Positions 2,371 through 29,344 of a stretch of 64,000 bases of DNA are shown here, one piece after another (position 1 is the stretch's first letter; every line of letters begins with the position of its first letter). The notes under the pieces were generated by a model, which ran no database searches, was not told where the DNA came from, and worked only from the letters and a program-made list of their open reading frames with translations. The translations under genes and the position numbers were made by a program. The stretch is from Eubacteriales Family XIII. Incertae Sedis bacterium (GTDB lineage Bacteria; Bacillota; Clostridia; Peptostreptococcales; Anaerovoracaceae). The DNA is taken from the NCBI GenBank assembly GCA_031261525.1, contig JAISJM010000100.1:1376-65375 (forward strand). The letters are read 5' to 3'.

Positions 2371-3852
2371 ATGGCACTTATGACAGGGGAACAGTACATC
2401 GAAAGTCTAAGATCACTGAAGACACAGGTTTACATGTTTGGTGAGAAAGTTGAGAATTGGGTAGATCATCCAATCATCAGACCATCCATCAACTGCGTCG
2501 CAGCAACTTATGATTTCGCTGACAATCCAGAGTATTCAGATCTTGCTGTTGTTACATCAAATCTCACAGGCAACAAGATCAACCGATTCACAAATCTCCA
2601 CCAGAGCACAGAAGATTTAAAGAATAAAGTAAAGATGCAGAGAGCGCTTGGCCAGATTACAGCTTCTTGCTTCCAGAGATGTGTTGGTATGGATGCGTTC
2701 AATGCGACATTTTCAACGACCTATGAAATTGATAAGAAATATGGTACAGACTATCATGAAAGATTCAAGAAATTCTTGATTGATGTACAGGACAACGATC
2801 TTACAGTTGATGGCGCAATGACAGATCCGAAGGGCAACAGAGGCGCATCACCAAGCGGTCAAGAAGATCCAGATCTCTTCGTACGTATCGTTGAAGAGAG
2901 AGAAGATGGAATCATCGTCAGTGGTGCTAAAGTACACCAGACTGGTTCAATCAACTCCCATTCTCATCTCGTGATGCCAACACAGGCGATGGCAGAAGCT
3001 GACAGCAAATATGCAGTTGCATTTTCTTGCCCATCTGACGCAGAAGGTCTATTCATGATTTACGGACGTCAGTCATGCGACACAAGAAAGCTTGAGAAGG
3101 ACGCTGATGTAGATCTTGGCAACAAGAAATACGGCGGACAGGAAGCACTCGTTGTATTTGACAACGTATTCATCCCAAATGAAAATGTATATCTAAAGGG
3201 CGAGTCTGAATTTGCTGGCATGCTCGTAGAGCGTTTTGCTGGATATCACAGACAGTCTTATGGTGGATGTAAAGTTGGCGTTGGCGATGTTGTAATCGGT
3301 GCTGCTGCACTTGCTGCTGAGTACAATGGCGCTCAGAAAGCAAGCCACATCAAAGACAAGCTCATCGAGATGACACACCTTAACGAGACATTGTACTGCT
3401 GCGGTATCGCATGTTCTGCTGAAGGTTATGCGACAGAAGCTGGCAACTATCAGATTGATTTACTTCTTGCCAATGTCTGCAAGCAGAATGTCACAAGATT
3501 CCCTTACGAGATCGTAAGACTCGCAGAGGACATCGCAGGTGGTCTCATGGTTACAATGCCATCACAGGCTGATTTCAGAAGTGACCTAAAGATTCCAACG
3601 GAGTCAGGCAAGACAATCGGCGAATGGTGCAACAAGTTCTTCGTTGGTGCTCCTGGCGTAAGCGTAGAGAACAGAATGCGCGTCATGAGATTCCTCGAGA
3701 ACATCTGCCTCGGTGCAGCTGCTGTTGGATACAGAACAGAGTCCATGCATGGTGCTGGTTCACCACAGGCTCAGAGAATCATGATTCAACGTCAAGGCAA
3801 TATCGAAGGCAAGAAAGCATTTGCTAAAAAAGTTGCAGGCATTGTAGAATAA
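2371..3852 (+). CDS. abfD: 4-hydroxybutyryl-CoA dehydratase / vinylacetyl-CoA delta-isomerase family protein
   Basis: The N-terminus MALMTGEQYIESLR is typical of the family. The ligand spacings known for AbfD are present: SCFQRC (CxxxC) and YHRQSYGGC (H-x6-C). The start was moved to ATG 2371, which lies behind aagggtagg. Confidence 0.8.
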   Translation: MALMTGEQYIESLRSLKTQVYMFGEKVENWVDHPIIRPSINCVAATYDFADNPEYSDLAVVTSNLTGNKINRFTNLHQSTEDLKNKVKMQRALGQITASCFQRCVGMDAFNATFSTTYEIDKKYGTDYHERFKKFLIDVQDNDLTVDGAMTDPKGNRGASPSGQEDPDLFVRIVEEREDGIIVSGAKVHQTGSINSHSHLVMPTQAMAEADSKYAVAFSCPSDAEGLFMIYGRQSCDTRKLEKDADVDLGNKKYGGQEALVVFDNVFIPNENVYLKGESEFAGMLVERFAGYHRQSYGGCKVGVGDVVIGAAALAAEYNGAQKASHIKDKLIEMTHLNETLYCCGIACSAEGYATEAGNYQIDLLLANVCKQNVTRFPYEIVRLAEDIAGGLMVTMPSQADFRSDLKIPTESGKTIGEWCNKFFVGAPGVSVENRMRVMRFLENICLGAAAVGYRTESMHGAGSPQAQRIMIQRQGNIEGKKAFAKKVAGIVE

Positions 3853-5680: not shown

Positions 5681-5813
5681 ATCGATTCTTCGTATTGTGA
5701 AATATGACGAGTAATGATGAAAAATGATGAAAATAAAGCATGGGGTTGTTCTCATGCTTTATTTTTGTGTAAAAGTGGTTTGCAGATGTACTGAATTAGG
5801 ATATGATAATAGA

Positions 5814-6563
5814 ATGAATAGCACAGAATCAACCAAAATTATAAAAATCAACCGCCTGACCTTTTCCTACGATGAATCCACGCGGCCGTCGCTCACAGAT
5901 ATTAATCTTGAAATTGATGTAGGCTCGATTACGGTATTGATTGGGCCATCGGGTTGTGGCAAGACGACGCTGTGTCGATGTATGATGGGTGTGATTCCGA
6001 AACTGATGAAAGGCACGCTTGCTGGTGACGTCTACCTTGCCGATACAGAGATTGCCCAAAATGATGATCTCAAAATCAGTACGCTGTCCCAGATTATCGG
6101 GTTCGTCATGCAAGAGACCGATGCGCAGATTGTGATGAGCACGGTGGAAGACGATCTCGCATTTGGTCCAGAAAATCTAATGGTGGAACCAGAAGAAATT
6201 AGAGTGCGTGTCAATGAAATTCTTATGCAAATGTCGCTAGATGATCATGCAACGAGAAATCCAGCACATCTATCAGGAGGAGAAAAGCAGCGACTTGCAA
6301 TTGGCGGAGTGCTTGCAATGCAGCCTGATATCTTAGTATTTGATGAACCAGTCAGCAATTTGGATGCTGCTGGCAAGTCCGCATTTGTGGAACAGGTGAA
6401 GATACTGAAAGCACTCGGCAAGACAATCGTCATCGTTGAGCATGATTTTGATCGGTTGGACTTTGCAGATCGGTGGGTGCTTATGAAAGACGGAGCGATT
6501 GTCTGCGATGCGAGCCCCGCGGATATTCCAAAGCAGCTATTGGAATATGAGCTATGGATATAA
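5814..6563 (+). CDS. ECF-type ABC transporter ATP-binding protein (EcfA1-like)
   Basis: Walker A GPSGCGKTT, signature LSGGEKQRLAI and Walker B LVFDEP are present. The start was set at the internal ATG (MNSTESTK...). Confidence 0.8.
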   Translation: MNSTESTKIIKINRLTFSYDESTRPSLTDINLEIDVGSITVLIGPSGCGKTTLCRCMMGVIPKLMKGTLAGDVYLADTEIAQNDDLKISTLSQIIGFVMQETDAQIVMSTVEDDLAFGPENLMVEPEEIRVRVNEILMQMSLDDHATRNPAHLSGGEKQRLAIGGVLAMQPDILVFDEPVSNLDAAGKSAFVEQVKILKALGKTIVIVEHDFDRLDFADRWVLMKDGAIVCDASPADIPKQLLEYELWI

Positions 6564-6627
6564 TGGATGCAAATGATGTATTCCGAAGCTTGCGGATTGA
6601 TCATTACATAAAACTGGAGTATAACTT

Positions 6628-7329
6628 ATGGCATTAATTGCACAAAACCTGAGCTTTTCATATCGTAACGGGATGCGTCAAAATAAGACTCATCATAATA
6701 TCATGAATCATAGTGCCAAGAATCGCCAGCCACCTGCTGTGACGCCAATCATTAGCAATTTCTCTGAAAGCTTTGAACCTGCCCGAATCACAGCAATCAC
6801 GGGGGCAAATGGCTGCGGTAAGACGACGCTTTCAAAATTACTTGTCGGCATCTTACAGCCGCAATTTGGCAAGGTGACAATGGATGGTACGGACATATCG
6901 AGTATGAGCCTGTCGCAAATAGGAAGGCAAATTGGGCTTGTCATGCAAAATCCGAGCCGTCAGCTTTTTTGTACTTCTGTGGCAGACGAGATGGAATTTG
7001 GGCTAAAGAATATCGGAATTGACGATGCTGAAATCAATCGAAGAAAACAATATTACTTGGCGTATTTTGGACTTCGCGATTATGAAGATCAATTCCCGTT
7101 TGAGCTGAGTACGGGAGAGAAACAGCGTCTGATTATTGCGGCAATTGTCGCAATGAAGCCCAAATATCTTATATTAGACGAGCCGACATCCTCGCTCGAT
7201 ATCAGCCGGCGCGCGGAACTTGGCAAGCTGTTACGAAGACTTAAAGATGACGAAGGCATGGGCATCCTCCTGATTAGTCATGATGCGCGTTTTGTATCCA
7301 CCTATGCGGATGAGGAAGTGTGCTTATGA
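6628..7329 (+). CDS. ECF-type ABC transporter ATP-binding protein (EcfA2-like)
   Basis: Walker A GANGCGKTT, signature LSTGEKQRLIIA and Walker B LILDEP are present. Confidence 0.8.
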   Translation: MALIAQNLSFSYRNGMRQNKTHHNIMNHSAKNRQPPAVTPIISNFSESFEPARITAITGANGCGKTTLSKLLVGILQPQFGKVTMDGTDISSMSLSQIGRQIGLVMQNPSRQLFCTSVADEMEFGLKNIGIDDAEINRRKQYYLAYFGLRDYEDQFPFELSTGEKQRLIIAAIVAMKPKYLILDEPTSSLDISRRAELGKLLRRLKDDEGMGILLISHDARFVSTYADEEVCL

Positions 7330-8120
7330 GTGCGCCAAATGAAATGCTTGCAGTGACACGGCTGGCGAGACTCGATCCGCGCCCAAAACTCATGCTCATG
7401 GCATCGGCATCCACCGCCGCCATGCTTACAAATAACCTCGTAGCGATTGTAAGCATTCTCTGCGTGTTGATGATATCAATGACAATTGGCGGTATGAGCG
7501 TGTCCAATGTGATAAGGCGCGCAAAGTCGCTCTTTGCGCTCATTGTCTTTTTGTTCATCATTCAGATATTTTTCTCTGGAATTGGTGATGTGATGCGTCC
7601 TGAAATCGGTATCGATGTAGTAAAACCGCTTCTTAAAATCGGCAAATTCAACTTATATGTACAGCCGCTTCAATTAGCCGCAGTTCTCTCACTTAGACTA
7701 CTTATCATCGTACTTTCTGCGCTTATCTTGCTTGAGGGTGATGCGCGTGACTATCTCCTTGCGCTCGTGCAGATGAAGGTTCCGTACGAGATTGCATTTA
7801 TGGTCATTGTCGGACTGCATTTCTTGCCGATTCTCAGGGAAGAAACAATCAATATCTATTGTTGTATGCAGCTGCGTGGCAAAGATTTTAAGAAAATTAG
7901 CCTGATCGAAAAATTGAAAGCATATATAAGCATCTGTTTGCCGATTCTTGTCAGTGCACTCAGGCGAGCGGACGAGATGTCCATCTCGATGGAGACGAGG
8001 GGATTTCGCGCCAAGCCAAGTCGCACCAATATGAGGCGACTGACGATGCACAGGTATGACGTCATTTTGACGATACTGTATCCAGTGGTATTTATCGGTC
8101 TGCATTTTATGATACATTAA
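7326..8120 (+). CDS. ECF transporter transmembrane T component (CbiQ/EcfT family)
   Basis: A polytopic membrane protein that contains ALRRADEMSISMETRGF, which resembles the EcfT coupling-helix Ala-Arg-Gly region. It has an ATGA overlap with the upstream ATPase stop and a gaggaag RBS. Confidence 0.75.
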   Translation: MSAPNEMLAVTRLARLDPRPKLMLMASASTAAMLTNNLVAIVSILCVLMISMTIGGMSVSNVIRRAKSLFALIVFLFIIQIFFSGIGDVMRPEIGIDVVKPLLKIGKFNLYVQPLQLAAVLSLRLLIIVLSALILLEGDARDYLLALVQMKVPYEIAFMVIVGLHFLPILREETINIYCCMQLRGKDFKKISLIEKLKAYISICLPILVSALRRADEMSISMETRGFRAKPSRTNMRRLTMHRYDVILTILYPVVFIGLHFMIH

Positions 8121-8208
8121 AACATGGCACATCTGCATGTTATGCTGCGAAGAGGCGTATGATGGAGTACGAATCAGTTTTATACAAATTTAAAGATGGA
8201 GTGACTCG

Positions 8209-8934
8209 ATGAGGTTTGAATGGACAGACGAAAAAATAGAGCAATACATACGGGCGTCTAAATACACGGAATTTCATAAAAACTTGGCGGCGCGGATTCA
8301 CCCCTTTCTGAATGAATCGGATCGTATCCTTGACATCGGCTGTGGTACTGGATGTATCGACATTGCGTTGTCGCCATGGGTCAAATCCATTACAGCATTT
8401 GACATCGACGACAGGGCGATTGACTATTTTAAGGAAGAAATAAAGAAGTCTGACATGCACAATATTACAGCATACACAAGAGATTTCTCGCAAATGTCTA
8501 CAATTGACTGTGACGTGGCATTGCTGTGCTATTTTGGGGCAACGCATGACGAATTGTTAGAGATTATTCATGCCGCACGAAGACAGACGATTGTCGTCAT
8601 GCATAGTGCTGGTGCGACAACAAAACCGAGCAAAATTAGCCGTAAAGTAAAGCATACTTCTGCAACGCAGATGCATCAGTTTTTGTCAGCAATGGATTTG
8701 GATTATGACTTTGTTGATACAAGACTGGAGTTTGGTCAGCCGCTTCGGTCAAAAGAGGAAGCAATTCATTTTTTTGAAGGCTATCTTCAACATTTTACGC
8801 ATGAGGAACGAGCACAAAAGATTCAGGTACAACTTGAAGAACTTGAAAAGATAGACGACAAACAATATCCTTATTTTTATTCACGTATGAAAGATATCTC
8901 GATTTTCATCATTCGCGGGTCGGCGTCAGAATGA
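8209..8934 (+). CDS. Class I SAM-dependent methyltransferase
   Basis: Motif I ILDIGCGTGCID is followed by an acidic post-I residue (FDID). Confidence 0.7.
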   Translation: MRFEWTDEKIEQYIRASKYTEFHKNLAARIHPFLNESDRILDIGCGTGCIDIALSPWVKSITAFDIDDRAIDYFKEEIKKSDMHNITAYTRDFSQMSTIDCDVALLCYFGATHDELLEIIHAARRQTIVVMHSAGATTKPSKISRKVKHTSATQMHQFLSAMDLDYDFVDTRLEFGQPLRSKEEAIHFFEGYLQHFTHEERAQKIQVQLEELEKIDDKQYPYFYSRMKDISIFIIRGSASE

Positions 8935-8958
8935 ACTTTGCAAGGAGATTAGGAACCT

Positions 8959-9579
8959 ATGAAAAAGAATGGCAATGGCAACATAAAATCTCAAAAAATC
9001 TTTCTGACAGGCGAACGCGGTGTTGGAAAGTCAACGATTATCAATCAAATCGTTCATGATATGTGCACACAATTGGATTTAACGCTAGTTGGTTTTCAGA
9101 CGCTGCCTGGAGCGGTATCTGCCGATAATAGTGAAGATAAAATATTCATCATCCCTTATGGCAAGTATCAGCGTGCGGATTTGATGGATGCATCGAGCCT
9201 CCAATGCAAATCGACCCTCCCCAATCCCGCACCACCACACCTAAAGCCAGTAGCGATACGCGACAAGAAAAATCAATCCTTCACAGCCTATCCAGAGATT
9301 TTCGATACGCTAGGCGTGGAAATTCTAAAGATGTCACAGGCTCAAGAGAACACCATAATCGTGATGGACGAACTTGGTTTTATGGAATCTGAAGCCTATG
9401 CTTTTCAATCAGAGGTTCTAAAAATTTTGGATCATAGTGCCACCGTTATCGGTGTAATCAAGCCCAAACACACGAATTTTTTAGATCGAATTAGAAATCA
9501 CAAAGACGTAACGGTTGTTACCGTGACAGAGGAGAATCGGGATTCGATTATATCTGTTATTTATGATATCATATCGTGA
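8959..9579 (+). CDS. P-loop NTPase, THEP1-like
   Basis: Walker A TGERGVGKST and Walker B IIVMDELGFME are present. The size is about 200 aa. Confidence 0.6.
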   Translation: MKKNGNGNIKSQKIFLTGERGVGKSTIINQIVHDMCTQLDLTLVGFQTLPGAVSADNSEDKIFIIPYGKYQRADLMDASSLQCKSTLPNPAPPHLKPVAIRDKKNQSFTAYPEIFDTLGVEILKMSQAQENTIIVMDELGFMESEAYAFQSEVLKILDHSATVIGVIKPKHTNFLDRIRNHKDVTVVTVTEENRDSIISVIYDIIS

Positions 9580-13400: not shown

Positions 13401-14768
13401 AGCATGGTCAACGAAACGATTCCATCTGAAGTCACGTTAAATTGGGCGGACAATCCGCAGACGACGCAGTCCGTAAGTTGGGCTGACAGCAGTGGTGGTT
13501 CTCAAGTTGTTCAATATATCGTAAGTAGTGCTTACAGCAATGCGGATTCACTGAGTAAGGGTACGTCTGTGATTGGAACTGCAAAGAAACTAGGCAGTAC
13601 CGATAAGACCTATTACAATGCGCAAATGACAGGACTAGAGCCAAATACCACCTATTACTATCGCGTAGGCACGCCAAACAATTGGAGTGAAATCTCTCAT
13701 TTTACAACCGCACAGAGTGATAAAAAGGACTTCAAATTTCTCTTCATGGGCGATATCCAGCGAAGTACAGGCACTGCAGAAGTAGAATATCCACAATGGG
13801 GCAAGCTACTCGGCGATGCCTATACTGCCAACCCAGATATCAAATTCGGATTGACGATTGGTGACATGGTTCAGAGTGGATCCGACCTTACGGACTGGAA
13901 GTATTTCCTATCCTATGCGCAGACGGCATTTTCAAAGATTCCATTAATGCCCAATATTGGTAATCACGAAAGCAATTTTGCAAATGGCAAAGCAGACTAT
14001 TATCTGGATATTTTCAACCTGCCTAAAAATGGTCCCGAAGGCTTCGAAGAAGAATTCTATTCTTTCGATTATGGCAATGTACATATCACAGCGTTGAACA
14101 GTTGGGCGTTGTCAGATGAGCAGGGCATCTACGACACAAAAGGTAACGTGAAAGACGAAACAACCCTGAACCGAATCAATCAATGGATTGAAGATGATCT
14201 TGCATCGACCAAAGCAAAGTTTAAGATTATTACGATGCATCACCCCATATATGCGATGGAAAATGATGCCGTATCGGATCGAGCAAAGATGCAATGGGAG
14301 CCGATTTTTATCGCACAGGGCGTAGATCTTGGTCTTGTCGGACATCAGCATGTCTATTCACGGACGTATTCTATTGCAGATGGCAATCAAGATGATGAAA
14401 AGGGGATCACTTATGTCATGGGCAACGCAGGGTTAAAATACTATAATACCGCTGACGATACGTATGTCGCGAAGATTATCTATAATCAGAGTACATACCA
14501 GATTTTAGATGTCTCTGGGGATACACTTTCGCTGAAGACCTATGATAGAGATGGAAAACAGCTAGATACATGGTCCAAAACCAACGAAACGATTGTCGTT
14601 CCAGGCGATGTCGATGACGATGGTGTGACGACGATGGAGGATGTGAATCGAATCAAGATTGCCGTGCTCGCAGGTGGCAGCTATGACAAGTCACTAGATG
14701 CAAATGGCGACAATGTCGTTGATATTCGAGATGCACAGTATGTACTTCGGATTGTAAATGGACGATAA
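10440..14768 (+). CDS. Giant secreted multidomain protein A (1442 aa): SUOX-fold-like N-module, GLUG beta-helix repeats, purple-acid-phosphatase-like metallophosphoesterase, C-terminal dockerin
   Basis: There is a signal/anchor segment (ISILFIFVMIASFI). Repeated GGIVGR/GGIAGR..NC motifs are GLUG-like. All five metallophosphatase motifs are present: FMGDIQ, IGDMVQSG, IGNHES, MHHPIY, GHQHVY. The C-terminus GDVDDDGVTTMEDVNRI...DANGDNVVDIRDAQYVLRI is a two-F-hand dockerin pattern. Confidence 0.85.
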   Translation: MKFRSMRSLVAMSKLYKKISILFIFVMIASFIPRPFGGSDVYAKGSLAEGDTVKNVLIYAKDSEDNDVLLSQLNVEEMLGYLNQHISEIGKVHNYSILDTYPTTVHQEAQGFTLPQLLDYAVSKSSLTDIATNNLTFDGENNGEKSVSFWELDGTGFDATDAYTYDKLYGVPRYNYPKMYEEWNPNAQSASPGSSYVNKNIVEDSAVPEEVILSITAFSQRYSNSQQEGKSDYNMEGYFDSMGLLDTSKAMRLMLPLTGQEFAAETKTAMNSRYGISYIRFDLGDDTGLTSLGEVAKPTWTVIDGDEDSTDAYESGYSYFTFACNTPGATILYNDSSTSSYIPTATYNGQAIKVKKIGTNARAAIKVRAVKEGYTDKGVINATNILDEGFYEDVSEDADVWDGKTIDMDWYVGHEDDDVYTIHTAAELAGLAAIVNSTTDGDTDLSKRVTFAGKTVTLVSDIHLNRQVWRGIGSDMGRQAGNVATNVDLDFYDTFSGLFDGSGHTISGMNLGDSPWNMGLYGLFGNLEDATVKNLTVSGIGYHEMPTAMGGIAGRAIDSTIENCKANMMLEGDGNVEMGGIVGRSTDTTIRNCENVGLLKGYYVGGIVGRGYEDSSISDCINHGFMDANEDAIINRGFGGGIIGYASDRTLIANCKNDSINKNANKSVSMDVGGIGGYGGMYVNCVNDADIRSSKSVAGILNNAVSGKKIHSVSDCVNYGNLNGSTAYGIAGFATITRTINVGNLTGTSAYGLTGNYKSGGDDPNVSLSANFGDVYGHAIAAGLIGTQSGILSNSFNQGAVHSDKAGSAAGLVWTGRNRISNCYDISENPVIHAVSGSPVFDNVFYLDSGNAADTAAGAYPNVTACTESAMKNISFVNTDLGAYNAELGELSPGKFITTGGGYPALYWLQKSLTISAKPSNTQILLKDASGVTKTAVTVISNSGILHTYPLIWGASYTYQATAPGYHAENKSFHLKDETSLEISLLTSMVNETIPSEVTLNWADNPQTTQSVSWADSSGGSQVVQYIVSSAYSNADSLSKGTSVIGTAKKLGSTDKTYYNAQMTGLEPNTTYYYRVGTPNNWSEISHFTTAQSDKKDFKFLFMGDIQRSTGTAEVEYPQWGKLLGDAYTANPDIKFGLTIGDMVQSGSDLTDWKYFLSYAQTAFSKIPLMPNIGNHESNFANGKADYYLDIFNLPKNGPEGFEEEFYSFDYGNVHITALNSWALSDEQGIYDTKGNVKDETTLNRINQWIEDDLASTKAKFKIITMHHPIYAMENDAVSDRAKMQWEPIFIAQGVDLGLVGHQHVYSRTYSIADGNQDDEKGITYVMGNAGLKYYNTADDTYVAKIIYNQSTYQILDVSGDTLSLKTYDRDGKQLDTWSKTNETIVVPGDVDDDGVTTMEDVNRIKIAVLAGGSYDKSLDANGDNVVDIRDAQYVLRIVNGR

Positions 14769-18060: not shown

Positions 18061-18155
18061 AAATAAGCAAGAAATAGAACCAATATATAGATAACTAAAA
18101 CTTTCTTTCAAAACAGTCAGAAATCTGACTGTTTTGCTTTTCATTCTGTGATATA
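18061..18155 (+). repeat. Intergenic cassette, copy 2 (paralog of 10291-10399)
   Basis: The same blocks occur in the same order upstream of the second GLUG-protein gene. Confidence 0.8.
18110..18142 (+). terminator. Rho-independent terminator after gene B
   Basis: aaaacagtcag-aaat-ctgactgtttt forms an 11-bp stem followed by gcttttc. Confidence 0.75.
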
Positions 18156-18219: not shown

Positions 18220-20808
18220 ATGTTGAAGACGCACACAAGCGCAAAGCACAAAATTCTATCCATTTTATTGGCGTTGTTGATTGTGGTATCATTTATGCCA
18301 CAAGTTCCGCAGGTTTATGCGGATGATATTGTGGGTGGCAATGAAGCACCAATCGTCAGTACGTGGGATGGTCAAAGCTATGATATTTCTTGGTACAACA
18401 CGGAAGATACAGAGTTTACACTCAATTCCGCAGCACAATTTGCAGGGTTTGCAGCGATTGTAAATGGTGAGACCCAAATTTGGGATGATGATACAAATCA
18501 ACCAACCCCATGGTACAATGGTGGAACAGCGATTCCTGGTGAGCCGCTCAAGATCGGTGAGCAAACGATTGCTGCGGATGATTTTACGGATAAGATTGTC
18601 AATCTAAATGCGGATGTTGATTTGGGCGGCATCTATGATGCTGAAGAGGGCACATGGGGTGGTGCCGTATGGCCTGTAATCGGACATTATACGAGTTCAA
18701 GTGCGGCTGGAAGTAATGATGGCCTAAAAGGCATTCCGTTCAAAGGTACTTTCAATGGTAATTTCCATAGCATCTCAAATATGTATGTAAGAGGTGATTA
18801 TTCAGCCGCTGATGATGTTGCGTCATGTAACTCAAAAGGATTATTTGGCGATTTAGGACATGTTGCACTTGTCAAAAATGTAATTCTTACATCAGGCTAT
18901 GTTACGGTAGCACGCTTTGGTGGTGGTATTGTCGGTAGAAACTGGGGCAATGTAGAGAATTGCGCAAATGGCGCGACAGTTGTTGGTAGAGGTCGTGGTG
19001 GTGCAGGCGGTATTGTCGGTGCAAATTATTACAACAATTTACCATTACCTGAGATTACAAATAGTTATAATTTTGGTACAGTTAAAAATCTTGGTGGTTC
19101 AAAATATTATCACGCAGGTGGAATTGCTTCCTTAAATGAGGGCGTTATTACAAACTGCTATAATGTTGGAACGATTATCAGCCGAGATCAAGCGGGTGGT
19201 ATGGCGGCTGAATCCAAGACGCTGATGAATAGTTTTACACTTGCTGGAACAAATGTAAAAGCGACAGCAAATGGCGAAGAAGTAAGTCGTACTGATGCAC
19301 TCGTGGGTAAAAACAATGGTACCATTGATGCAACTTCTGCAATTCTTACAAGCGATGACATGACGGATCCTGCATTTGTCACTTTACTAAATGGCGAGGA
19401 CAATGCCTTTGTTCCAGATTTATCTGGTATCAATCAAGGTTATCCAATCCTCAGTGGTTATGCACTTTTAGCCGTTTCAAAAGAACTATACTCAATTGAA
19501 GTAAAGACACAGCCAAATCAACGAGCTTACACGAGCGGTGATTCTTTCAATAAAGATGGACTCGAAATTGAAGCAACCTACTTAAATGGTGAAAAGAGTA
19601 TCCTTGCAGATGAAGACTATAGCGTCACTCCAGAAGTATTAAGCTCTGCGGATACAAGCGTTACCGTGAGCTATACCGATGGTGATATTACAAAGAATGT
19701 AACAATCGACGGCATCACCGTTGAAAAAAGAACCATCTCTGCAATCACAGAACCTGCAATTACAGGCGATGCAACGGTAAATAACACGCTTTCAGTAAGT
19801 ACTGGCGAATGGAGCGAGACACCAGATGCGGTAACCTATCAATGGTATGCAGATGCTGCACCAATTACAGGTGCAACGGACAGCACCTATAAGCTGACAG
19901 TAGCGGATCATAGTAAAGCAATCACGGCTCAAGTAACGGCATCCAAAGAAGAATGTCATGATGCTTCGATTGTCTCTAGTCCAACTGCCAAAGTCGGTGC
20001 ATGTACAATAGAAGTACAATCCCCGAGCATTACAGGTACTGCTAAAGTTGGTCAGACGCTGAAAGTGGATGCTGGTGTATGGAATCCAGAGGCAGAAATT
20101 CTAGGATATCAGTGGCTTGTCAATGGTACAGAAATTGCAAATGCAACAGGCACATCCTATCAGATCAAATCAGGTGACCTTGGAAAAGCAATCTCCGTGA
20201 AAGTCACCGCAAAGATATTGGATTATTACACTGTTGTACATACATCTACAAAGACTGCAAAGGTGACCGCAGACTTCGTCAAAGGAGATGTGAAAATCAC
20301 AGGAACTGTAAAAGTTGGTAAGCAGCTCAAGGCAGTACCTGATAGCAAATGGAGTCCAAAGCCAACTTATACCTATCAATGGTATGCAAATGGTCAGGCA
20401 ATTAAAAATGCAACAAAAGTGAACTATACAATCGCAAGTGGTGATTTTGGCAAGCAGATTACAGTTAAGGTAACTGCCAAGAAAGCAAATTATGTCACTG
20501 CAACAAAGACTTCTGCAAAGACTGCAAAGGTAAAAGCTGGAGACTTCACAAAAGGTAGCATTACAATCTCTGGCAAAGCGAAAGTTGGACAAAAGCTTAC
20601 TGCCAAGACAGCAAAGTGGAGTCCAACACCAACATTCACGTATCAATGGTATGCAAATGGCAAGGCAATCAAGAATGCAACGAAGTCTACTTATACATTA
20701 AAGGCGGCTGAGAAAGGAAAGAAAATCACAGTCAAGGTTACTGCGAAGAAGACAAACTATGTAACTGTCTCAAAGACTTCTGCAAAGACCACAAATGTAG
20801 TAAAATAA
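18220..20808 (+). CDS. Secreted GLUG-repeat protein C (862 aa) with one Big_3-like domain and four C-terminal ~89-aa YQWY repeats
   Basis: The signal peptide ends ...QVYA/DD. The N-terminus (TWDGQSYDISWY...AAQFAGFAAIVNG) is paralogous to the A segment VWDGKTIDMDWY...AAELAGLAAIVNS. GLUG-like GGIVGRN/GGIVGAN motifs are present. Confidence 0.85.
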   Translation: MLKTHTSAKHKILSILLALLIVVSFMPQVPQVYADDIVGGNEAPIVSTWDGQSYDISWYNTEDTEFTLNSAAQFAGFAAIVNGETQIWDDDTNQPTPWYNGGTAIPGEPLKIGEQTIAADDFTDKIVNLNADVDLGGIYDAEEGTWGGAVWPVIGHYTSSSAAGSNDGLKGIPFKGTFNGNFHSISNMYVRGDYSAADDVASCNSKGLFGDLGHVALVKNVILTSGYVTVARFGGGIVGRNWGNVENCANGATVVGRGRGGAGGIVGANYYNNLPLPEITNSYNFGTVKNLGGSKYYHAGGIASLNEGVITNCYNVGTIISRDQAGGMAAESKTLMNSFTLAGTNVKATANGEEVSRTDALVGKNNGTIDATSAILTSDDMTDPAFVTLLNGEDNAFVPDLSGINQGYPILSGYALLAVSKELYSIEVKTQPNQRAYTSGDSFNKDGLEIEATYLNGEKSILADEDYSVTPEVLSSADTSVTVSYTDGDITKNVTIDGITVEKRTISAITEPAITGDATVNNTLSVSTGEWSETPDAVTYQWYADAAPITGATDSTYKLTVADHSKAITAQVTASKEECHDASIVSSPTAKVGACTIEVQSPSITGTAKVGQTLKVDAGVWNPEAEILGYQWLVNGTEIANATGTSYQIKSGDLGKAISVKVTAKILDYYTVVHTSTKTAKVTADFVKGDVKITGTVKVGKQLKAVPDSKWSPKPTYTYQWYANGQAIKNATKVNYTIASGDFGKQITVKVTAKKANYVTATKTSAKTAKVKAGDFTKGSITISGKAKVGQKLTAKTAKWSPTPTFTYQWYANGKAIKNATKSTYTLKAAEKGKKITVKVTAKKTNYVTVSKTSAKTTNVVK
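19735..20805 (+). repeat. Four tandem coding repeats of about 267 bp (ITG.AKVG..L.A....WSP.PT..YQWY.NG..I.NAT...Y.......GK.ITVKVTAKK.NY)
   Basis: Read from the translation. A fifth copy lies in gene D at about 21705-21940. Confidence 0.85.
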
Positions 20809-20812
20809 TTAT

Positions 20813-22423
20813 ATGATTAAAAAAGCTGTTATAATTTTAATTCTATCCATACTCGTAGCCACTTCGGCTACGAGTATGTTTGGTGAATGGGACTTTTATT
20901 CTTATGCGGAGTCAGGTGGAACGAAAGAAGAAACTACGACAAACGAAGAATTGACGATACGTGTTGGATATTTTGGTTCGTCGCCAGATTATGTGGAAGT
21001 GAAGAAATACTCCCTTGCTGATTTACATGCGCTTGGTGTTCATGATCAGTCCTATAGCTGGATTGATTCGCTACCAGCACCCGTCATGCAAGCGACAAGA
21101 GGCGTCTATCTTCGAGATTTGATTGCAGATGCAGGAATTGATATCTATTCGGTCTCTCGATATGATTTCAGATCACGCGATGCGCATGAGCCATGGAGTG
21201 AGATGACATCACAGGCACTCTTTGATACGCCAAGGTATTTTTATCCAAATTTGGTGAGTACATGGGATCCGATCACGAATTGGATTGGTGTGGGCGTAGA
21301 AGAGGGAAGGGCTCCAGTCGAGGCAATGCTTGCGGTGGAAGACTATTGGGAACGCAGTATCTCAGAGCCTGACTATAGTAAGCTGCATGCAGCAGATTGC
21401 TATCGACTTGTCTTTGGTATGCCAACTTCGGATACAAAACTTGCGCATGATTCAATCAAATGGATTAAATCAATTGACTTGATGCTTGTCGGTTCACCAC
21501 CAGATGATTTTGGTAAAAATGATGAGGACGATTTAGCGGGTAGCGATCAGGATAACAACAACCCGGGTACTGGTAATGAACACGACCAAGATAAAGATAA
21601 AGAAAAAGACGATGACAATTCTTCGGATACTGGCAATCCAGATAAAGGTAAAGATACCAATGATGGCACGCCTGGTGCGACATTTGCAGAGGCATCGGAA
21701 CCAACCATTCGAGGCGTCGCACAGGTTCGTGAGACGCTTACTGCGTATCCTGGCACATGGTCGCCAACACCAACTTATGAATACCAATGGTATGCGGAGG
21801 ATGTGGCAATTGCGCGGGCTACAAATCAGACTTATCAGGTGAAGACAATGGATGTAGGCAAGCGGATTACGGTTAAGGTTACAGGCAGAAAAAGCGGCTA
21901 TACGGCAATGACCAAGACTTCGGCACCCACCGAACCTGTCGCACCAAAAGACCGCGATAGCAAAGTCTTTGGCGAAAAGGAGCAAAATGACAATGGTATA
22001 GATAGCAACGGAGGTGGTGATGACAAGCAAAACCACGGTGGCAGTGATGGCGATGCAGATGCAAGTGACCGCAGTGCTGCCAATGACAAGTCTGGTAGTG
22101 ACTCGGGTACAGGTGGCGGAAAGTATGTTCAAATTGGGCTTGCAGGTGGTGATACCATCTCGGGTAAAGAGCTCTCTGCCGCAGACACGCTGAAAATGCT
22201 CGCCCTTGCTGGTGATGCGGGCGGCACGGGTACGGACAGCCCGTGGACAGCCTATGAAATTTCACCAGATACTGTGCCATTTAAGTTACCGCCGCCAGAT
22301 ATGAAGATGGTCGCGGTTGTGTTGGGGCTGCTTGTCCTCGCATTTATTGGCGGTGGTGTTCAGGGCTATATGACGTTCAATCCTGAACTCATGAGGCATA
22401 TAATGAAGAAAAGAAGGAGCTAA
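20813..22423 (+). CDS. Membrane-tethered surface protein D (536 aa): signal peptide, SUOX-fold-like module, acidic D/K/N linker, one YQWY repeat, G/D/S-rich linker, Pro-rich segment, C-terminal TM anchor
   Basis: GVYLRDLIADAGIDIY ... CYRLVFGMP ... SIKWIKSIDL matches the Oxidored_molyb-type signature. The C-terminus is PFKLPPPDMKMVAVVLGLLVLAFIGGGV followed by the basic tail KKRRS. The gap after gene C is 4 nt. Confidence 0.8.
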   Translation: MIKKAVIILILSILVATSATSMFGEWDFYSYAESGGTKEETTTNEELTIRVGYFGSSPDYVEVKKYSLADLHALGVHDQSYSWIDSLPAPVMQATRGVYLRDLIADAGIDIYSVSRYDFRSRDAHEPWSEMTSQALFDTPRYFYPNLVSTWDPITNWIGVGVEEGRAPVEAMLAVEDYWERSISEPDYSKLHAADCYRLVFGMPTSDTKLAHDSIKWIKSIDLMLVGSPPDDFGKNDEDDLAGSDQDNNNPGTGNEHDQDKDKEKDDDNSSDTGNPDKGKDTNDGTPGATFAEASEPTIRGVAQVRETLTAYPGTWSPTPTYEYQWYAEDVAIARATNQTYQVKTMDVGKRITVKVTGRKSGYTAMTKTSAPTEPVAPKDRDSKVFGEKEQNDNGIDSNGGGDDKQNHGGSDGDADASDRSAANDKSGSDSGTGGGKYVQIGLAGGDTISGKELSAADTLKMLALAGDAGGTGTDSPWTAYEISPDTVPFKLPPPDMKMVAVVLGLLVLAFIGGGVQGYMTFNPELMRHIMKKRRS

Positions 22424-22426
22424 CGA

Positions 22427-23041
22427 TTGGATACGAGTTCAGTTAAATCAGCAATACATATCATCTCTTCGTCACTTGAGATACCCGCAATTATCGTATT
22501 AATTTTGGCGGTTGTCATTGTTGTATCCCAGATTGGGAGTGTTATGATAGAGTTTTTTACAGAGCGCATGGGGAAGAATCCCAACGTCACGAAAGTATTG
22601 GAAAACATTTCTGGCAAAGAGCGTACACAGATTCTTGAAATCATCAATGCCAATCCATTTCAGAAATCTCAAAAAAGGGCATTTGCGCGCTTCCTTCAAA
22701 GCGATATCATCTCAGTCGATGAACAGAAGCTTTTCGCAGTGCAGCTTCTATCCGAGACAGAATCAAGGCTCGACCGCCGCATCGCAGTTACGGACATCAT
22801 TGCGCGCATCGGTCCCATGTTTGGCTTGATGGCAACATTGATTCCGCTAGGACCGGGGCTTATCGCACTCGGTCAAGGTGACACGCGGACATTGTCCGAT
22901 TCGCTACTTACGGCATTTGATGCTACGGTAGCGGGACTTGCTGCTGCAGGTGTAGCGTATATTATTTCCAAAATTAGGAAAAGATGGTATCAAAGTGATA
23001 TGATGGCAATGGAGACAATACTGGAAGGAGTGATTCGCTGA
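22427..23041 (+). CDS. MotA/TolQ/ExbB-family proton-channel protein (204 aa)
   Basis: Three predicted TM segments are present. The C-terminal half, IGPMFGLMATLIPLGPGLIALGQGD...LLTAFDATVAGLAAAGVAYI, follows the MotA_ExbB pattern (P..GL.GT......L.......L...I..AL.TT..GL). TTG start 7 nt after aaggag. Confidence 0.75.
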   Translation: MDTSSVKSAIHIISSSLEIPAIIVLILAVVIVVSQIGSVMIEFFTERMGKNPNVTKVLENISGKERTQILEIINANPFQKSQKRAFARFLQSDIISVDEQKLFAVQLLSETESRLDRRIAVTDIIARIGPMFGLMATLIPLGPGLIALGQGDTRTLSDSLLTAFDATVAGLAAAGVAYIISKIRKRWYQSDMMAMETILEGVIR

Positions 23042-23382
23042 TGCTCAGAAGCAATTATAGAAGTAGAAAACGCTATTTTGATGAAGAGGATGTCAATCCA
23101 ATGGAGGGCGCTGTCAATATCGTTGACGCGATGCTCGTCTTCGCTTGTGGACTCATGCTCAGCCTTGTCATCTACTGGAATGTTGATATTCAAAATAAGG
23201 AACTTGTACCCGTATCGCGAGGTCAAGAAGTCTCTGGCATTGAAAGCACACAGGAAGATTTGCAAGGTAGCATCGATGGGGAAGGTCAATATGAGAAGAT
23301 GGGGACTGTATATGTGGATCCGAAAACGGGCAAGATGTATATGGTAAATGAGGATACCGATGGTACAGAAAATGAAGAGTAA
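23041..23382 (+). CDS. ExbD/TolR-like single-pass membrane protein (DUF2149-like, 113 aa)
   Basis: A basic N-tail is followed by the TM segment NPMEGAVNIVDAMLVFACGLMLSLVIYW. Its Asp (codon 23125-23127) lies where ExbD/TolR carry the proton-relay Asp (compare P.IDVMLVLLIFF). The start overlaps the upstream stop (TGATG). Confidence 0.65.
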   Translation: MLRSNYRSRKRYFDEEDVNPMEGAVNIVDAMLVFACGLMLSLVIYWNVDIQNKELVPVSRGQEVSGIESTQEDLQGSIDGEGQYEKMGTVYVDPKTGKMYMVNEDTDGTENEE

Positions 23383-24469
23383 TCGCATTGCAATCTTTTT
23401 TATCCTGCTATTTACAATCGCGGCATTTGCGACATTTTCAGGCTGTAGCAAGGCTGATTCATCTTCGCTCCATTATTTGGATCAGAAAATCACAATTGTC
23501 GGCGTGTCGGACGAGGACTTTACAGTCACCGTTTCCAATCTGACAAAGCTGGATCGTGTGGAAAAAAAAGCAGAAGCAACGAGATCCAATGGCGATATTG
23601 TAAAGATGAAAGCGGTTGGTCCAACGCTTGAGACATTTCTTGCGCAGTATGATAAACTTCCCACGGATTACTCGTCTGTACGGTTTACCGCGACAGACGG
23701 TTATTCGATTGCGATTCCACGAGAGATTCTTGAACGGCGCGAAATCGTCTTAGCCTATATGGATGGCAAACATGCCTTTGGCAAAGATATGGCGCCGTTG
23801 CGCGTTGTTGTCCTTGGTGAACGCGCGATGTACTGGGCGCGCATGGTCAACAAAATTGAATTTGAGACAGGCACGGAATCTTTGACGACAGATAAAGTCG
23901 TCTTTCTTGATACCATTTTGCCAGATATGAACAGTACCTATAGCGAAGAAGAGGGTGGCGATATCGTCAGTACGATTGATTTGCTTACAAAATATGGCGG
24001 TCTGGATAGTGATGGCAAAGTCTATATGTCAGCTTATGACGGTCTAAAGAAAAATGAAACCATTGATAATTTTCTAAAAGGTTACATCAAATATACGGGT
24101 GAGATGACACCTCAATTTTGCTCACCAGATTTACCACCGGGTATGAATCTCGACGGCATTGTGTCCGCAAGGGTTGGCGGCGTCATCTATTATTCGCTGA
24201 ATCGCGCTTTAGAAGTTCTGCCAGAAAAGGAAGCTGCTGGCGTGAAAGGTATCGGTTTCACTGACATCATAAAGGATGGGGGCTTTAAGCGTGCCAATTT
24301 GTATCAAATTACAGATAAAGATGGCAATTACTCCGTATTTAATGAACATGAAATTGTAAAAGGCGTCTTTACAAAAGACAATGACACGTGGACTTTTGTA
24401 TCCGCGGAGAAAGATCCAGTCATTGGTGTCGTCATGGTAGAGGGCATCGACATGGAACAAGGCGAATAA
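23360..24469 (+). CDS. Lipoprotein G with SUOX-fold-like (Oxidored_molyb-like) module(s)
   Basis: The lipobox is AFATFSG/C. The segment VRFTATDGYSIAIP..IVLAYMDGKHAFGKDMAPLRVVVLGERAMYWARMVNKIEFE closely follows the MsrP/YedY-type pattern. ATG 23360 lies 5 nt after gagga. The track start is 23348. Confidence 0.75.
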   Translation: MVQKMKSNRIAIFFILLFTIAAFATFSGCSKADSSSLHYLDQKITIVGVSDEDFTVTVSNLTKLDRVEKKAEATRSNGDIVKMKAVGPTLETFLAQYDKLPTDYSSVRFTATDGYSIAIPREILERREIVLAYMDGKHAFGKDMAPLRVVVLGERAMYWARMVNKIEFETGTESLTTDKVVFLDTILPDMNSTYSEEEGGDIVSTIDLLTKYGGLDSDGKVYMSAYDGLKKNETIDNFLKGYIKYTGEMTPQFCSPDLPPGMNLDGIVSARVGGVIYYSLNRALEVLPEKEAAGVKGIGFTDIIKDGGFKRANLYQITDKDGNYSVFNEHEIVKGVFTKDNDTWTFVSAEKDPVIGVVMVEGIDMEQGE

Positions 24470-24495: not shown

Positions 24496-25332
24496 ATGCT
24501 CGTAAACAATAACCGCTATGACAACTACGACAGCAGCAACAGCAACAGCAACGACAATAACAGCAACAGGCGCTTTGTTGCGACATTTGCAATGATTTTA
24601 ATTGCGATATTGGTCACGCTCGGACTGTTTTTGTCAGGTTGTGCGTCACGCAGTGCGCCTCGCAGTACGTCAAGTAGTACAGAGGAACGTTTCCTCTCCA
24701 TTGAGGGGGACGTCATAGATTATCGATCGATGAAGACTGGCGATCAAGATTTTTCTGGCATATCATTGCCAGAATTTTTATCTGAAAGCAAGATTTCTGG
24801 TACCCCCAAATACATCTATCTCATCTCATCTGGCGATGGATTTGTCGCGAAGATTGACTATGAAAATTCAGAAAAAGTTTCTATTATTTTTAGTGAGACG
24901 ACAGGCTGGAGCATCGTCGCACCTGACCATCCCATCAGCACCAATGCCGTAGACTTAGATAAAATCATTGTCGTATCTGACGATAGTGAAGTTGGTCTTC
25001 ACATCATCAAGCAAGATGGCAGTACGGATATCGTATCGATGGGCAAAATCCTCACCTCTCCGATGCTGTATGAACTGCATTATGAAGGCGCTTCCGATAT
25101 TGGTAGTGGAAAAGACAAACGCACAACAGAAATATATACAAGGCAGATGTCGGTAAAATTGGCTGATATCTATGATGCGTACAACGATGAACCATTTGCT
25201 GTCACAACAAAATCAGGCGACAAATATCTGACAGACGGTAGCGGACGTTTTTCTATGAATCGGCAAAAAATAAACTACATCGAAGAAACGGGTGACATTT
25301 ACGAAGATGTTCAAGAGATACAGCTACGGTAA
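24496..25332 (+). CDS. Lipoprotein H, paralogous extracytoplasmic module, with an N/S-rich N-terminal extension
   Basis: The lipobox is GLFLSG/C, preceded by NNNRYDNYDSSNSNSNDNNSNRR. The start was set at ATG 24496 behind gggagaatggg. The module ISLPEFLSESKISG..YIYLISSGDGFVAKIDYE resembles the G/D modules. Confidence 0.65.
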   Translation: MLVNNNRYDNYDSSNSNSNDNNSNRRFVATFAMILIAILVTLGLFLSGCASRSAPRSTSSSTEERFLSIEGDVIDYRSMKTGDQDFSGISLPEFLSESKISGTPKYIYLISSGDGFVAKIDYENSEKVSIIFSETTGWSIVAPDHPISTNAVDLDKIIVVSDDSEVGLHIIKQDGSTDIVSMGKILTSPMLYELHYEGASDIGSGKDKRTTEIYTRQMSVKLADIYDAYNDEPFAVTTKSGDKYLTDGSGRFSMNRQKINYIEETGDIYEDVQEIQLR

Positions 25333-27781: not shown

Positions 27782-28420
27782 TTAACTTTTATTTGTGCCC
27801 CCAATCGTGCACACCTTACGCCAACACCATTTAATCCCTTTATGGATGAGATGAATCGGTTGTGAATAAATCTGTTCATCAGGTGAGATCCAAAACAAGA
27901 GAGAGCCAACACAAGTGATAAGCACTGCAGGTGGGAACCAGATTCCGATGATAATTCCAGCGGCGATAATTGCAATTGTAATCTCAGAACGATGGGTGCC
28001 GTCTAATCTTTCCATCTTGCCTTCATTTTGGTGAATCTTCTTCAGATGACGCACGAGTGCAAAGTATATTAAATCTGTAACGATGAGAATTGCACCATAG
28101 AGTTGATTCGGTGCCATTTTTGTGATGTTGATATTGAGCCAAGCAGTTGTGAATGGAAATAACGACATCGGCAGAATTAAGAGCGTATTGAGCCACAGAA
28201 CCGTATTGTCAATCTTGCTGACCTTTTGGAACAAATTATGATGGTTCATCCAGTAGATGGCGAGTGTAACAAAACTTACCGCATAGACGATGAACTCATA
28301 GCGAAGATCATAGATGTCAATTGCTGTAAAGCCATCGGGTGGTCTGAGTTCCAATACCAAAATAGTCATAATAATTGCAATAATCGCATCTGTAAATGCT
28401 TCTAATCTTGTTTTACTCAT
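27782..28420 (-). CDS. TMEM175-family (DUF1211) potassium channel-like membrane protein
   Basis: The N-terminus RLEAFTDAIIAIIMTILVLEL matches the family signature (R.E.FSD.V.AI..TLL). Confidence 0.75.
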   Translation of the reverse strand: MSKTRLEAFTDAIIAIIMTILVLELRPPDGFTAIDIYDLRYEFIVYAVSFVTLAIYWMNHHNLFQKVSKIDNTVLWLNTLLILPMSLFPFTTAWLNINITKMAPNQLYGAILIVTDLIYFALVRHLKKIHQNEGKMERLDGTHRSEITIAIIAAGIIIGIWFPPAVLITCVGSLLFWISPDEQIYSQPIHLIHKGIKWCWRKVCTIGGTNKS

Positions 28421-28544
28421 ATGGTTTTCCTCTATTATTTACTTATCATTTTTTTGTTTAGATTCAACAAAATTTTACTTTACTTCTACGTTCAAATCAA
28501 GTACAATAATATATGTTGCGTTTGCAGCACATATAAAAAGGTTC

Positions 28545-28621
28545 GCGCCATTAGCTCAGCTGGATAGAGTAGCGCACTACGAATGCGAAGGTCGGGAGTT
28601 CAAATCTCTCATGGCGCGCCA
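28545..28621 (+). tRNA. tRNA-Arg (anticodon ACG) with encoded CCA
   Basis: Hand-folded cloverleaf. The acceptor stem is GCGCCAT/ATGGCGC, the D stem GCTC/GAGT, the anticodon loop CTACGAA, and the T arm GGGAG-TTCAAAT-CTCTC. The discriminator is G, followed by CCA. Confidence 0.9.
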
Positions 28622-28684
28622 TTTTCATTTTATGATTTTATTCCGCTCACATAGAATAAGGATTCATTACATTATACAATATCT

Positions 28685-29344
28685 GTGATAAAACAAATTA
28701 CAAAAATATTAATATTTCTAATACTTTTGATAGCTGTACTTGTGACAGCTATCAATTTGTATGTGTGCATTTATTCAAGTCAGTATATATTGACGCAAGA
28801 GGAAGCTGCAAAGCTGGAAGATGTGGACTGTATCACTGTGCTTGGCGCCTCCGTTACAAATGGGAAGCCAAGCCCCGTGCTTGCTGGTAGAATCGATACT
28901 GCCGATGATTTATTTGATAAAGGCGTCAGCAATTTATTTTTATTATCTGGCGACAATGGTTCCAATTATTACAATGAAGTTGGTGCAATGAAGCAGTATC
29001 TCCTCGATGAAAGTGGTGGCAGCGTTACTTCTGACAATATCTACTTGGATTATGCAGGATTCTCTACTTATGATAGCATGTACCGGCTTCAGGCAATCTT
29101 TGGCGCCAAGAAGACGGTTGTCGTCACCCAGAAATATCATCTATATCGAAGTATCTTTATTGCTAGAAAGCTTGGCATTGAGGCATATGGCGTCCCTGCG
29201 AAGGGTGGTAATTACCTTGGACCGCGAGATGAAATACGGGAGACGTTAGCAAGAATTAAGTGCATTGGGACTGTCTATGGCAAGGCTGAGCCGCGATTTT
29301 TAGGAGACAAGATTGAATTGACTTATCCATCTACATCGGAGTAA
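28685..29344 (+). CDS. sanA: SanA/YdcF (DUF218) family protein
   Basis: An N-terminal TM segment is followed by VLGASV.NGKPSPVLAGRIDTA, LLSGDNG and VVTQKYHLYRS. GTG start. Confidence 0.7.
   Translation: MIKQITKILIFLILLIAVLVTAINLYVCIYSSQYILTQEEAAKLEDVDCITVLGASVTNGKPSPVLAGRIDTADDLFDKGVSNLFLLSGDNGSNYYNEVGAMKQYLLDESGGSVTSDNIYLDYAGFSTYDSMYRLQAIFGAKKTVVVTQKYHLYRSIFIARKLGIEAYGVPAKGGNYLGPRDEIRETLARIKCIGTVYGKAEPRFLGDKIELTYPSTSE

Follow-up and report, generated by a model that had tools for sequence, protein, structure and literature searches.

A tail-anchored SUOX-fold protein encoded directly before an HmuU/HmuV-type motor pair: a candidate motor-associated receptor in a single-membrane bacterium

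Gene D (20813–22423, + strand) lies in a 64,000-nt stretch of DNA from an Eubacteriales Family XIII. Incertae Sedis bacterium (GenBank assembly GCA_031261525.1, contig JAISJM010000100.1, positions 1,376 to 65,375 of the forward strand), which is subsequently called the window. Its open reading frame (ORF) translates into an exported protein of 536 amino acids (aa) with a C-terminal membrane anchor. Directly downstream follow genes E (22427–23041, +) and F (23041–23382, +), which form a pair of the HmuU/HmuV type as judged from their sequences. With middling confidence, we read D as the membrane-tethered receptor subunit of a proton-motor system of this class in a monoderm bacterium. A physical association of the predicted protein with E/F is fairly likely. 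As a D-type gene is found almost always directly before the motor in single-membrane anaerobes, D is probably the part on which the motor works; by analogy only, the motor may drive D mechanically, much as ExbBD drives TonB. Motors of the ExbB/ExbD type are understood as carrying the energy of the inner membrane to the outer membrane via N-terminally anchored TonB or TolA. Here, a motor of this class is fixed beside a protein whose topology is the reverse, and the bacteria lack an outer membrane.

The conserved unit of D is its C-terminal module, not its head or its linker, and this module stays by the motor while heads are swapped. In the window it covers 22223–22420 (+) and consists of the juxtamembrane sequence PWTAYEIS (22241–22264), a spacer with PL and PPP, a transmembrane (TM) helix (22301–22375) and a basic cytoplasmic tail. 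Conservation per column was taken over 113 non-redundant tails. The juxtamembrane W is found in 80/80 tails where the position is present and is followed by R, V/I, Y/F, E (80/105), M/I and S; after a P-L pair and ∼12 variable residues comes a short helix with F (76/113) and, three residues on, G (106/113), and the cytoplasmic part follows the pattern R/K-Y..Y-R/K-E. The i, i+3 spacing places F and G on one face of the helix. About 60% of the best 150 head-bearing clusters end in the D tail and the others in SLH or other domains. The tail module and the E/F pair are present in one copy each, both in this genome and in Anaerovorax odorimutans. An anchor that is conserved beside the pair, when the head is not, shows the behaviour expected of a motor-docking element.

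The first-pass annotation had left it as a check whether a D-type gene is kept next to E/F in other genomes, and this turned out to be the case. Loci found through D showed the order D-E-F-G-H in 7/7 informative cases, usually with a phosphoesterase gene next, and the alignment of closer D homologues gave 6 genome loci. Starting from E, we obtained a Thermacetogeniaceae contig and two further loci, in which the order is again the same and a D-type gene overlaps or abuts E. In a family sample of 151 genomes the tail module was sought with a hidden Markov model (HMM) and DUF2149, the family of F, with a profile: DUF2149 was present in 28 genomes, the tail in 20 and both in 18 (Fisher p = 2.4e-14). 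The two tail matches without DUF2149 are among the weakest and lie in frames of 56 and 160 aa. In 16/18 genomes with both, the tail ends 677–1091 nt 5′ of the DUF2149 match, an interval that leaves space for E only. We inspected 9 of the 10 DUF2149-positive genomes that were negative with the HMM. Six of them carry a divergent tail-anchored protein directly before E, which is secreted and bears a G/D/S-rich linker, the motif x-(Y/H)-E-(M/I), a C-terminal helix and a basic tail; three of these proteins have SUOX-like heads and three have unrelated heads. The latter (L012:10338–12983 in genome G001, L024:934–3450 in G434 and L022:845–5500 in G439) range from 838 to >1551 aa, with a G/D/S linker and (Y/H)E(I/V) before the helix. 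Adjacency is thus found in 22/27 examined DUF2149-positive family genomes. Metagenome loci were fetched through an alignment of F, and the best 80 were taken, 55 of them evaluable: in 47/55 the gene immediately 5′ of E codes for a C-terminal helix and matches the tail module, and in most cases the two genes overlap by 4 nt. Among 300 genomes across the class, DUF2149 was found in 2/300 and the tail module only in the genome of the window.

D is the only long frame across 20813–22423 (+). Its homologues reach E-values of 1e-87 in sequence searches, and its head is common to 403 clusters at the 50% identity level, a number that argues for a real gene. The N-terminus had been described as a cleavable-looking signal, which the homologues bear out. 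A predicted signal peptide (20813–20908, residues 1–32) consists of MIKK, a hydrophobic core at residues 5–22 and YSYA/ES, with predicted cleavage after YSYA; the xYA site is kept in the alignment of homologues, and AlphaFold2 (AF2) models a helix at residues 2–22. The signal bears no twin-arginine (RR), which points to export by Sec and not by the twin-arginine (Tat) route. D was folded by AF2 from a 17-row alignment, and the head (20945–21517, residues 45–235) reached scores >90 in the predicted local distance difference test (pLDDT). Using Foldseek against the PDB, the only significant matches of this head were SUOX-fold molybdenum-cofactor domains, in agreement with the SUOX-like head proposed earlier. 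The best match was E. coli YedY/MsrP (1xdy/1xdq; E 8.5e-4, probability 1.0, ∼200 columns), and further matches were the molybdenum (Mo) fragment of nitrate reductase (2bih) and SorT (4pw3). TM-scores are modest (0.35 on target), so that the likeness is one of fold and not a close one. By sequence comparison D gave no match in Pfam or NCBIfam (E ≤ 0.01) or in the PDB, and the head profile gave none in the PDB. A head profile aligned to the profile of the lipoprotein G family with 78.6% probability (hhalign), and that family matches the sulfite dehydrogenase SorA (2c9x, E 4e-4). The predicted SUOX/Oxidored_molyb-like fold of D is without the Mo-ligand cysteine: no conserved cysteine column is present in the head alignment (at most 5/23). 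Together with the non-Tat signal, this leads us to infer that the head is a non-catalytic binding module of pterin-cofactor type, which would be loaded with its cofactor outside the cell.

Between the head and the C-terminal module the first-pass annotation had seen two low-complexity spacers. Both are present and have pLDDT values <50, but a folded repeat between them had been omitted. Linker 1 (21518–21697, residues ∼236–295) is D/K/N/G-rich, predicted to be disordered and begins past a conserved LVGSPP boundary. It is followed by one copy of a YQWY immunoglobulin (Ig)-like repeat (21698–21946, residues 298–376), which is 40–53% identical to four repeats of gene C (BLASTP), and by linker 2 (21947–22222, residues ∼379–470), which is G/D/S/N-rich and likewise predicted to be disordered. 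A long spacer as a defining trait of such proteins does not hold for the family, where the stretch from head to tail varies between 23 and 319 residues (median 127). The proline-rich VPFKLPPPD exists as described (487–495) but is short and part of the conserved juxtamembrane segment. The single C-terminal TM helix with a basic tail is confirmed by the model: residues 497–521, with the sequence MVAVVLGLLVLAFIGGGVQGYMTF, have pLDDT values of 77–89, and the protein ends in KKRRS.

Gene E encodes a MotA/TolQ/ExbB-like channel subunit of 204 aa (PF01618, E 1.2e-10). Its AF2 model matches ExbB (5zfp/5sv0/6tyi), PomA (8brd), TolQ and MotA chains in Foldseek, among them chains of the solved complexes 9ddo (TonB-ExbBD) and 9ddm (TolAQR). 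Gene F encodes an ExbD/TolR-like protein with a single N-terminal TM helix, which belongs to DUF2149 by Pfam (PF09919, 35.6 bits) and not to the ExbD family. The TM aspartate D29 in NIVDAMLVFACG is invariant in 11 diverse homologues. The external part of ∼65 aa comprises a short acidic stretch and the near-invariant terminal GTVYxDPxTGKMY; a search of F against Pfam yielded no peptidoglycan-binding or OmpA-like domain. The pair fits the A-subunit (ExbB fold) and the B-subunit (TM Asp) of ion-driven motors of the MotA/ExbB type, with a 5:2 stoichiometry suggested by analogy. D, or the lipoproteins encoded downstream, may contact F at its terminal motif. A separate clade of E/F pairs (loci L019, L020 and L021 in genomes G311, G399 and G414) carries an F with LVDVMLVFACGLMIA and the terminal motif GFVYxDPxTGKMY, and stands after cytoplasmic-looking genes. 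No Omp85/BamA was found in the genome of the window; the same search was positive in 7/14 controls, namely those with an outer membrane. The cell is therefore taken as monoderm, with neither an outer membrane nor a TonB-dependent transporter.

From these observations we propose how D may work. According to its sequence and model, D is exported unfolded via Sec, and flexible linkers carry its predicted SUOX-fold head, without the Mo-ligand cysteine, on the outer side of the cell. A single C-terminal helix keeps the protein anchored, and the tail behind it is cytoplasmic. Conservation and synteny suggest that the ∼55-residue module, composed of W..YE(M/I)S, the F..G helix and the Y..Y..E tail, may dock D to E/F. 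The helices of TonB and TolA lie on the rim of the ExbB/TolQ pentamer (PDB 9ddo, 9ddm); the D helix would most likely be found at the rim of the E pentamer in the same manner, and the juxtamembrane motif could touch the short external tail of F. Proton flow via E/F may then, by analogy, move or strain D. As a consequence, the head might yield its cargo to the membrane-proximal lipoproteins G and H and to the neighbouring importer of the energy-coupling factor (ECF) or ATP-binding cassette (ABC) type, or it might be drawn through the wall. If the coupling is true, the roles of these motors widen, the HmuUV/DUF2149 class of gut Bacteroidota and methanogens gains a testable partner, and an uptake route for molybdenum/tungsten (Mo/W) cofactors is indicated. 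Being short and having clear limits, the tail module lends itself to mutation, swapping and searches. A wider claim, drawn by analogy, is that HmuUV-class motors work on C-terminally anchored cofactor receptors with the ∼55-residue tail as docking element; we hold it to be rather doubtful. If it were true, single-membrane bacteria would possess a functional counterpart of the Ton system that serves the salvage of preformed Mo/W-pterin cofactors, and HmuS of Bacteroidota would be driven similarly.

Several points weigh against D as a motor-driven receptor. The loci and the family samples lean towards close relatives of the genes of the window. In 2/18 genomes with both features the D-type gene lies 8.6 and 16.6 kb from the pair, on the same contig and strand; in Anaerovorax odorimutans no D-type gene adjoins E, and the single copy comes 16.6 kb further downstream. 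The remaining three of the inspected HMM-negative genomes belong to the separate E/F clade and lack a D-type gene next to the pair. As linker length is not conserved, a reach across the wall cannot be essential everywhere, and this analysis identified no anchored, wall-distal counter-partner for D to pull on. The link between D and E/F itself is drawn from sequence and genomic context. In addition, we folded a read-through chain of D(430–536) and E with AF2, using one E protomer and paired rows from natural in-frame D-stop-E junctions. E was modelled confidently, but the motif had pLDDT values of ∼50 or below and the D helix of 70–76, no better than in D alone, a result that tells little for or against docking.

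In another arrangement, D would be a passive, tethered capture receptor of an uptake locus, equivalent in a monoderm to a periplasmic binding protein, and would be transcribed together with the motor but not be moved by it. Its tail module would then only anchor D or help assembly close to the importer, and the motor would energise an importer, wall proteins or protein release. We consider this a real but minor possibility. The head has a fold of ligand-binding type, G and H lipoproteins as well as ECF/ABC importers share the loci, and some linkers are only 23–49 aa long. The D-type gene of Anaerovorax adjoins an ECF module and not E/F, and the AF2 fusion showed no docking signal. However, a mere anchor needs neither an invariant W and a YE(M/I)S motif 20 residues out, nor a near-invariant Gly and a Y..Y..E tail. 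While heads are swapped, the tail keeps its place immediately 5′ of E, the stop codon of the one gene overlapping the start codon of the next, and elsewhere in these loci proteins with such a head are attached by SLH or other anchors.

It is less probable, and in our view unlikely, that D extends or anchors the B-subunit in the manner of a split GldM or MotB, binding the GTVYxDPxTGKMY motif of F and either holding the F dimer to the wall, so that E turns, or acting as an external shaft turned by F. For such shafts on 5:2 motors, GldM and PorM serve as precedents. Only ∼65 aa of F are external, carrying a single conserved motif at the end and no OmpA-like domain, and the motif of D is found about as far from the membrane on the outer side. 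Yet the D helix cannot fit inside the pentamer together with two F helices, so that any contact would be external only, and the head is a ligand-binding fold and not a wall-binding module. That the C-terminal segment is a cleaved sorting signal of the LPXTG/sortase type or of the exosortase, archaeosortase or rhombosortase type is very improbable: a motif followed by a hydrophobic stretch and a basic tail is superficially similar, but D carries no LPXTG, other known motif or CTERM match in Pfam/NCBIfam, the conserved motif precedes the helix by ∼20 residues instead of adjoining it, the cytoplasmic tail shows sequence conservation beyond its basic character, no sortase-like or protease gene is found in the conserved neighbourhood (E, F, G, H, phosphoesterase), the only co-occurring partners are E/F, and conservation that is specific to position and helix face is unlike that of a signal which is cut off and discarded.

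The genes around D and its relatives give hints about the cargo. Related loci contain genes for AFOR, MoeA, MoCF_biosynth (MogA/MoaB-type), ThiF/MoeB and molybdopterin oxidoreductases as well as Fec-type ABC or ECF importers, NTPase_1 and DUF364. In a locus of Desulfosporosinus (L009) we found two riboswitch aptamers for molybdenum cofactor (Moco) or tungsten cofactor (1071–1203, 78 bits, and 3056–3188, 63 bits), the second of which lies ∼150 nt before a gene for a secreted protein with a D-type head. A search for Moco and other riboswitches in the 64,000-nt window gave no match, even at E ≤ 1. The neighbouring genes and the Desulfosporosinus riboswitches make a Mo/W-pterin a reasonable though indirect guess, and the cargo of D may be a molybdenum/tungsten-pterin cofactor or a related pterin. 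In the full-text literature a Mo/W-cofactor uptake system of this kind was not described, in a search that was not aimed at cofactor import. The D-type gene of Anaerovorax odorimutans adjoins genes for an ECF importer, an NTPase and a methyltransferase, a trio that is also present upstream in the window (ECF A1-A2-T module, class I methyltransferase and THEP1-like NTPase, 5724–9579). In the Anaerovorax locus (L018:3197–8390) the same set, together with an S-component-like gene, flanks the D-type gene and not E/F. Genes for extracellular phosphoesterases recur: a PAP-type metallophosphatase is encoded in the window (13430–14500), and a Phosphodiest-type, nucleotide pyrophosphatase-like enzyme in the Thermacetogeniaceae locus (L014:12349–13833). 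As a pure conjecture, such enzymes might act on the pterin cofactor by trimming its dinucleotide forms.

The position of D directly 5′ of E was described correctly: after the stop codon TAA of D (22421–22423) only CGA precedes the TTG start codon of E at 22427, a gap of 3 nt, and a GGAG lies inside the last codons of D. D and E share one reading frame with only TAA-CGA between them (22421–22429). In-frame junctions of this kind are also present in the metagenome loci L027, L039, L067, L075, L083 and L089, and read-through of the stop would give a D-E fusion; most other metagenome loci have a 4-nt D/E overlap and not an in-frame junction. One database protein, P0152 (415 aa), carries a D-type head fused to the last two thirds of an ExbB-like protein. 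We rejected it as a Rosetta-stone link since the first ExbB helix is missing and the protein resembles a deletion, misassembly or chimera of neighbouring D and E genes. Upstream, 4 nt separate the stop of gene C from D. A strong terminator-like hairpin (18109–18136, 12 bp and a T-run) lies after gene B and 5′ of C, and none was found between C and H, so that D is read as the second gene of a C-D-E-F-G-H operon, which the hairpin parts from an A-B unit. Gene C (18220–20808, +), the first gene of the operon, encodes an exported protein with GLUG/Ig repeats according to Pfam, including a weak IG_AIR9/Ig_2 match, and has no membrane anchor. Gene G (23348–24469, +) encodes a lipoprotein with an Oxidored_molyb-like domain (PF00174, 24.3 bits) and stands directly 3′ of F in the conserved loci. 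Gene H (24496–25332, +) encodes a second lipoprotein with an LSGC lipobox and is kept after G in loci L001, L005, L006, L007 and L010. Further downstream, a tRNA gene (28545–28618, 59.6 bits) sits inside a listed ORF (28314–28688), which is therefore probably no gene.

The first-pass annotation had likened D to TonB. This holds in a loose sense only; D does not belong to the TonB family. As in the TonB-ExbB-ExbD and TolA-TolQ-TolR systems, a single-pass, extended protein with linkers is encoded beside an ExbB/ExbD-type pair, and its functional domain lies at the far end of the linker. In contrast, there is no homology, and the anchor of TonB and TolA is N-terminal, while that of D is C-terminal (N-out, C-in). 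Mature D bears no SHLS motif with its essential His (PMC12204202) and no N-terminal TM helix: its only TM helix (497–521) is without a His/SHLS pattern. TonB_C (PF03544) and TolA domain III gave no match to D in Pfam and NCBIfam at E ≤ 0.01, the globular domain being a SUOX fold. TonB has a proline-rich (EP)n/(KP)n rod, which D does not, and its head binds the TonB box, whereas the head of D is predicted to be a ligand-binding module. The Ton system belongs to diderm cells with an outer membrane and a TonB-dependent transporter; the cell of D is taken to have no outer membrane, and its B-subunit is a DUF2149 and not an ExbD protein. A 2025 survey of force transducers covers only TolA, TonB and vWA proteins, all anchored at the N-terminus, and holds Ton components in monoderms to be probably non-functional or vestigial (PMC12204202).

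The nearest published parallel is the uncharacterised HmuS-HmuTUV set from the haem operon hmuYRSTUV of Bacteroidota (P. gingivalis PG1553-56; B. thetaiotaomicron); literature that mentions DUF2149 deals with the Bacteroidota haem operons or with unrelated topics. HmuU is a MotA/TolQ/ExbB protein and HmuV a DUF2149 protein, the same motor class as E/F. HmuS of B. thetaiotaomicron, encoded upstream of HmuTUV, has single predicted TM helices at its N and C termini (PMC12583661). As described in the literature, it is a large extracytoplasmic cofactor handler, and its predicted topology would be that of the D precursor, a likeness of architecture. However, HmuS is a CobN-like dechelatase and D has a SUOX fold, the multi-TM HmuT stands between HmuS and the motor, and the system is found in diderms with a TonB-dependent receptor of their own, HmuR. 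We also considered HmuT as the counterpart of D and rejected it, as it is described as a multi-TM putative permease; HmuS fits better. As in D, an extracytoplasmic SUOX/Oxidored_molyb fold is present in YedY/MsrP and in periplasmic pterin-binding proteins of the PruR type (A. tumefaciens; PDB 7kom and relatives); 7kom is also a weak profile match of the lipoprotein G family (E 0.075). PruR binds pterins without catalysis (PMC11194511). Both are small, soluble periplasmic proteins of Proteobacteria without linkers, TM anchor or motor link, and YedY leaves the cytoplasm via Tat with Moco bound through a cysteine, whereas D has no such cysteine and a non-Tat signal. D can be placed as an extended, probably motor-associated protein of another family than TonB, with the opposite topology and in a different envelope.

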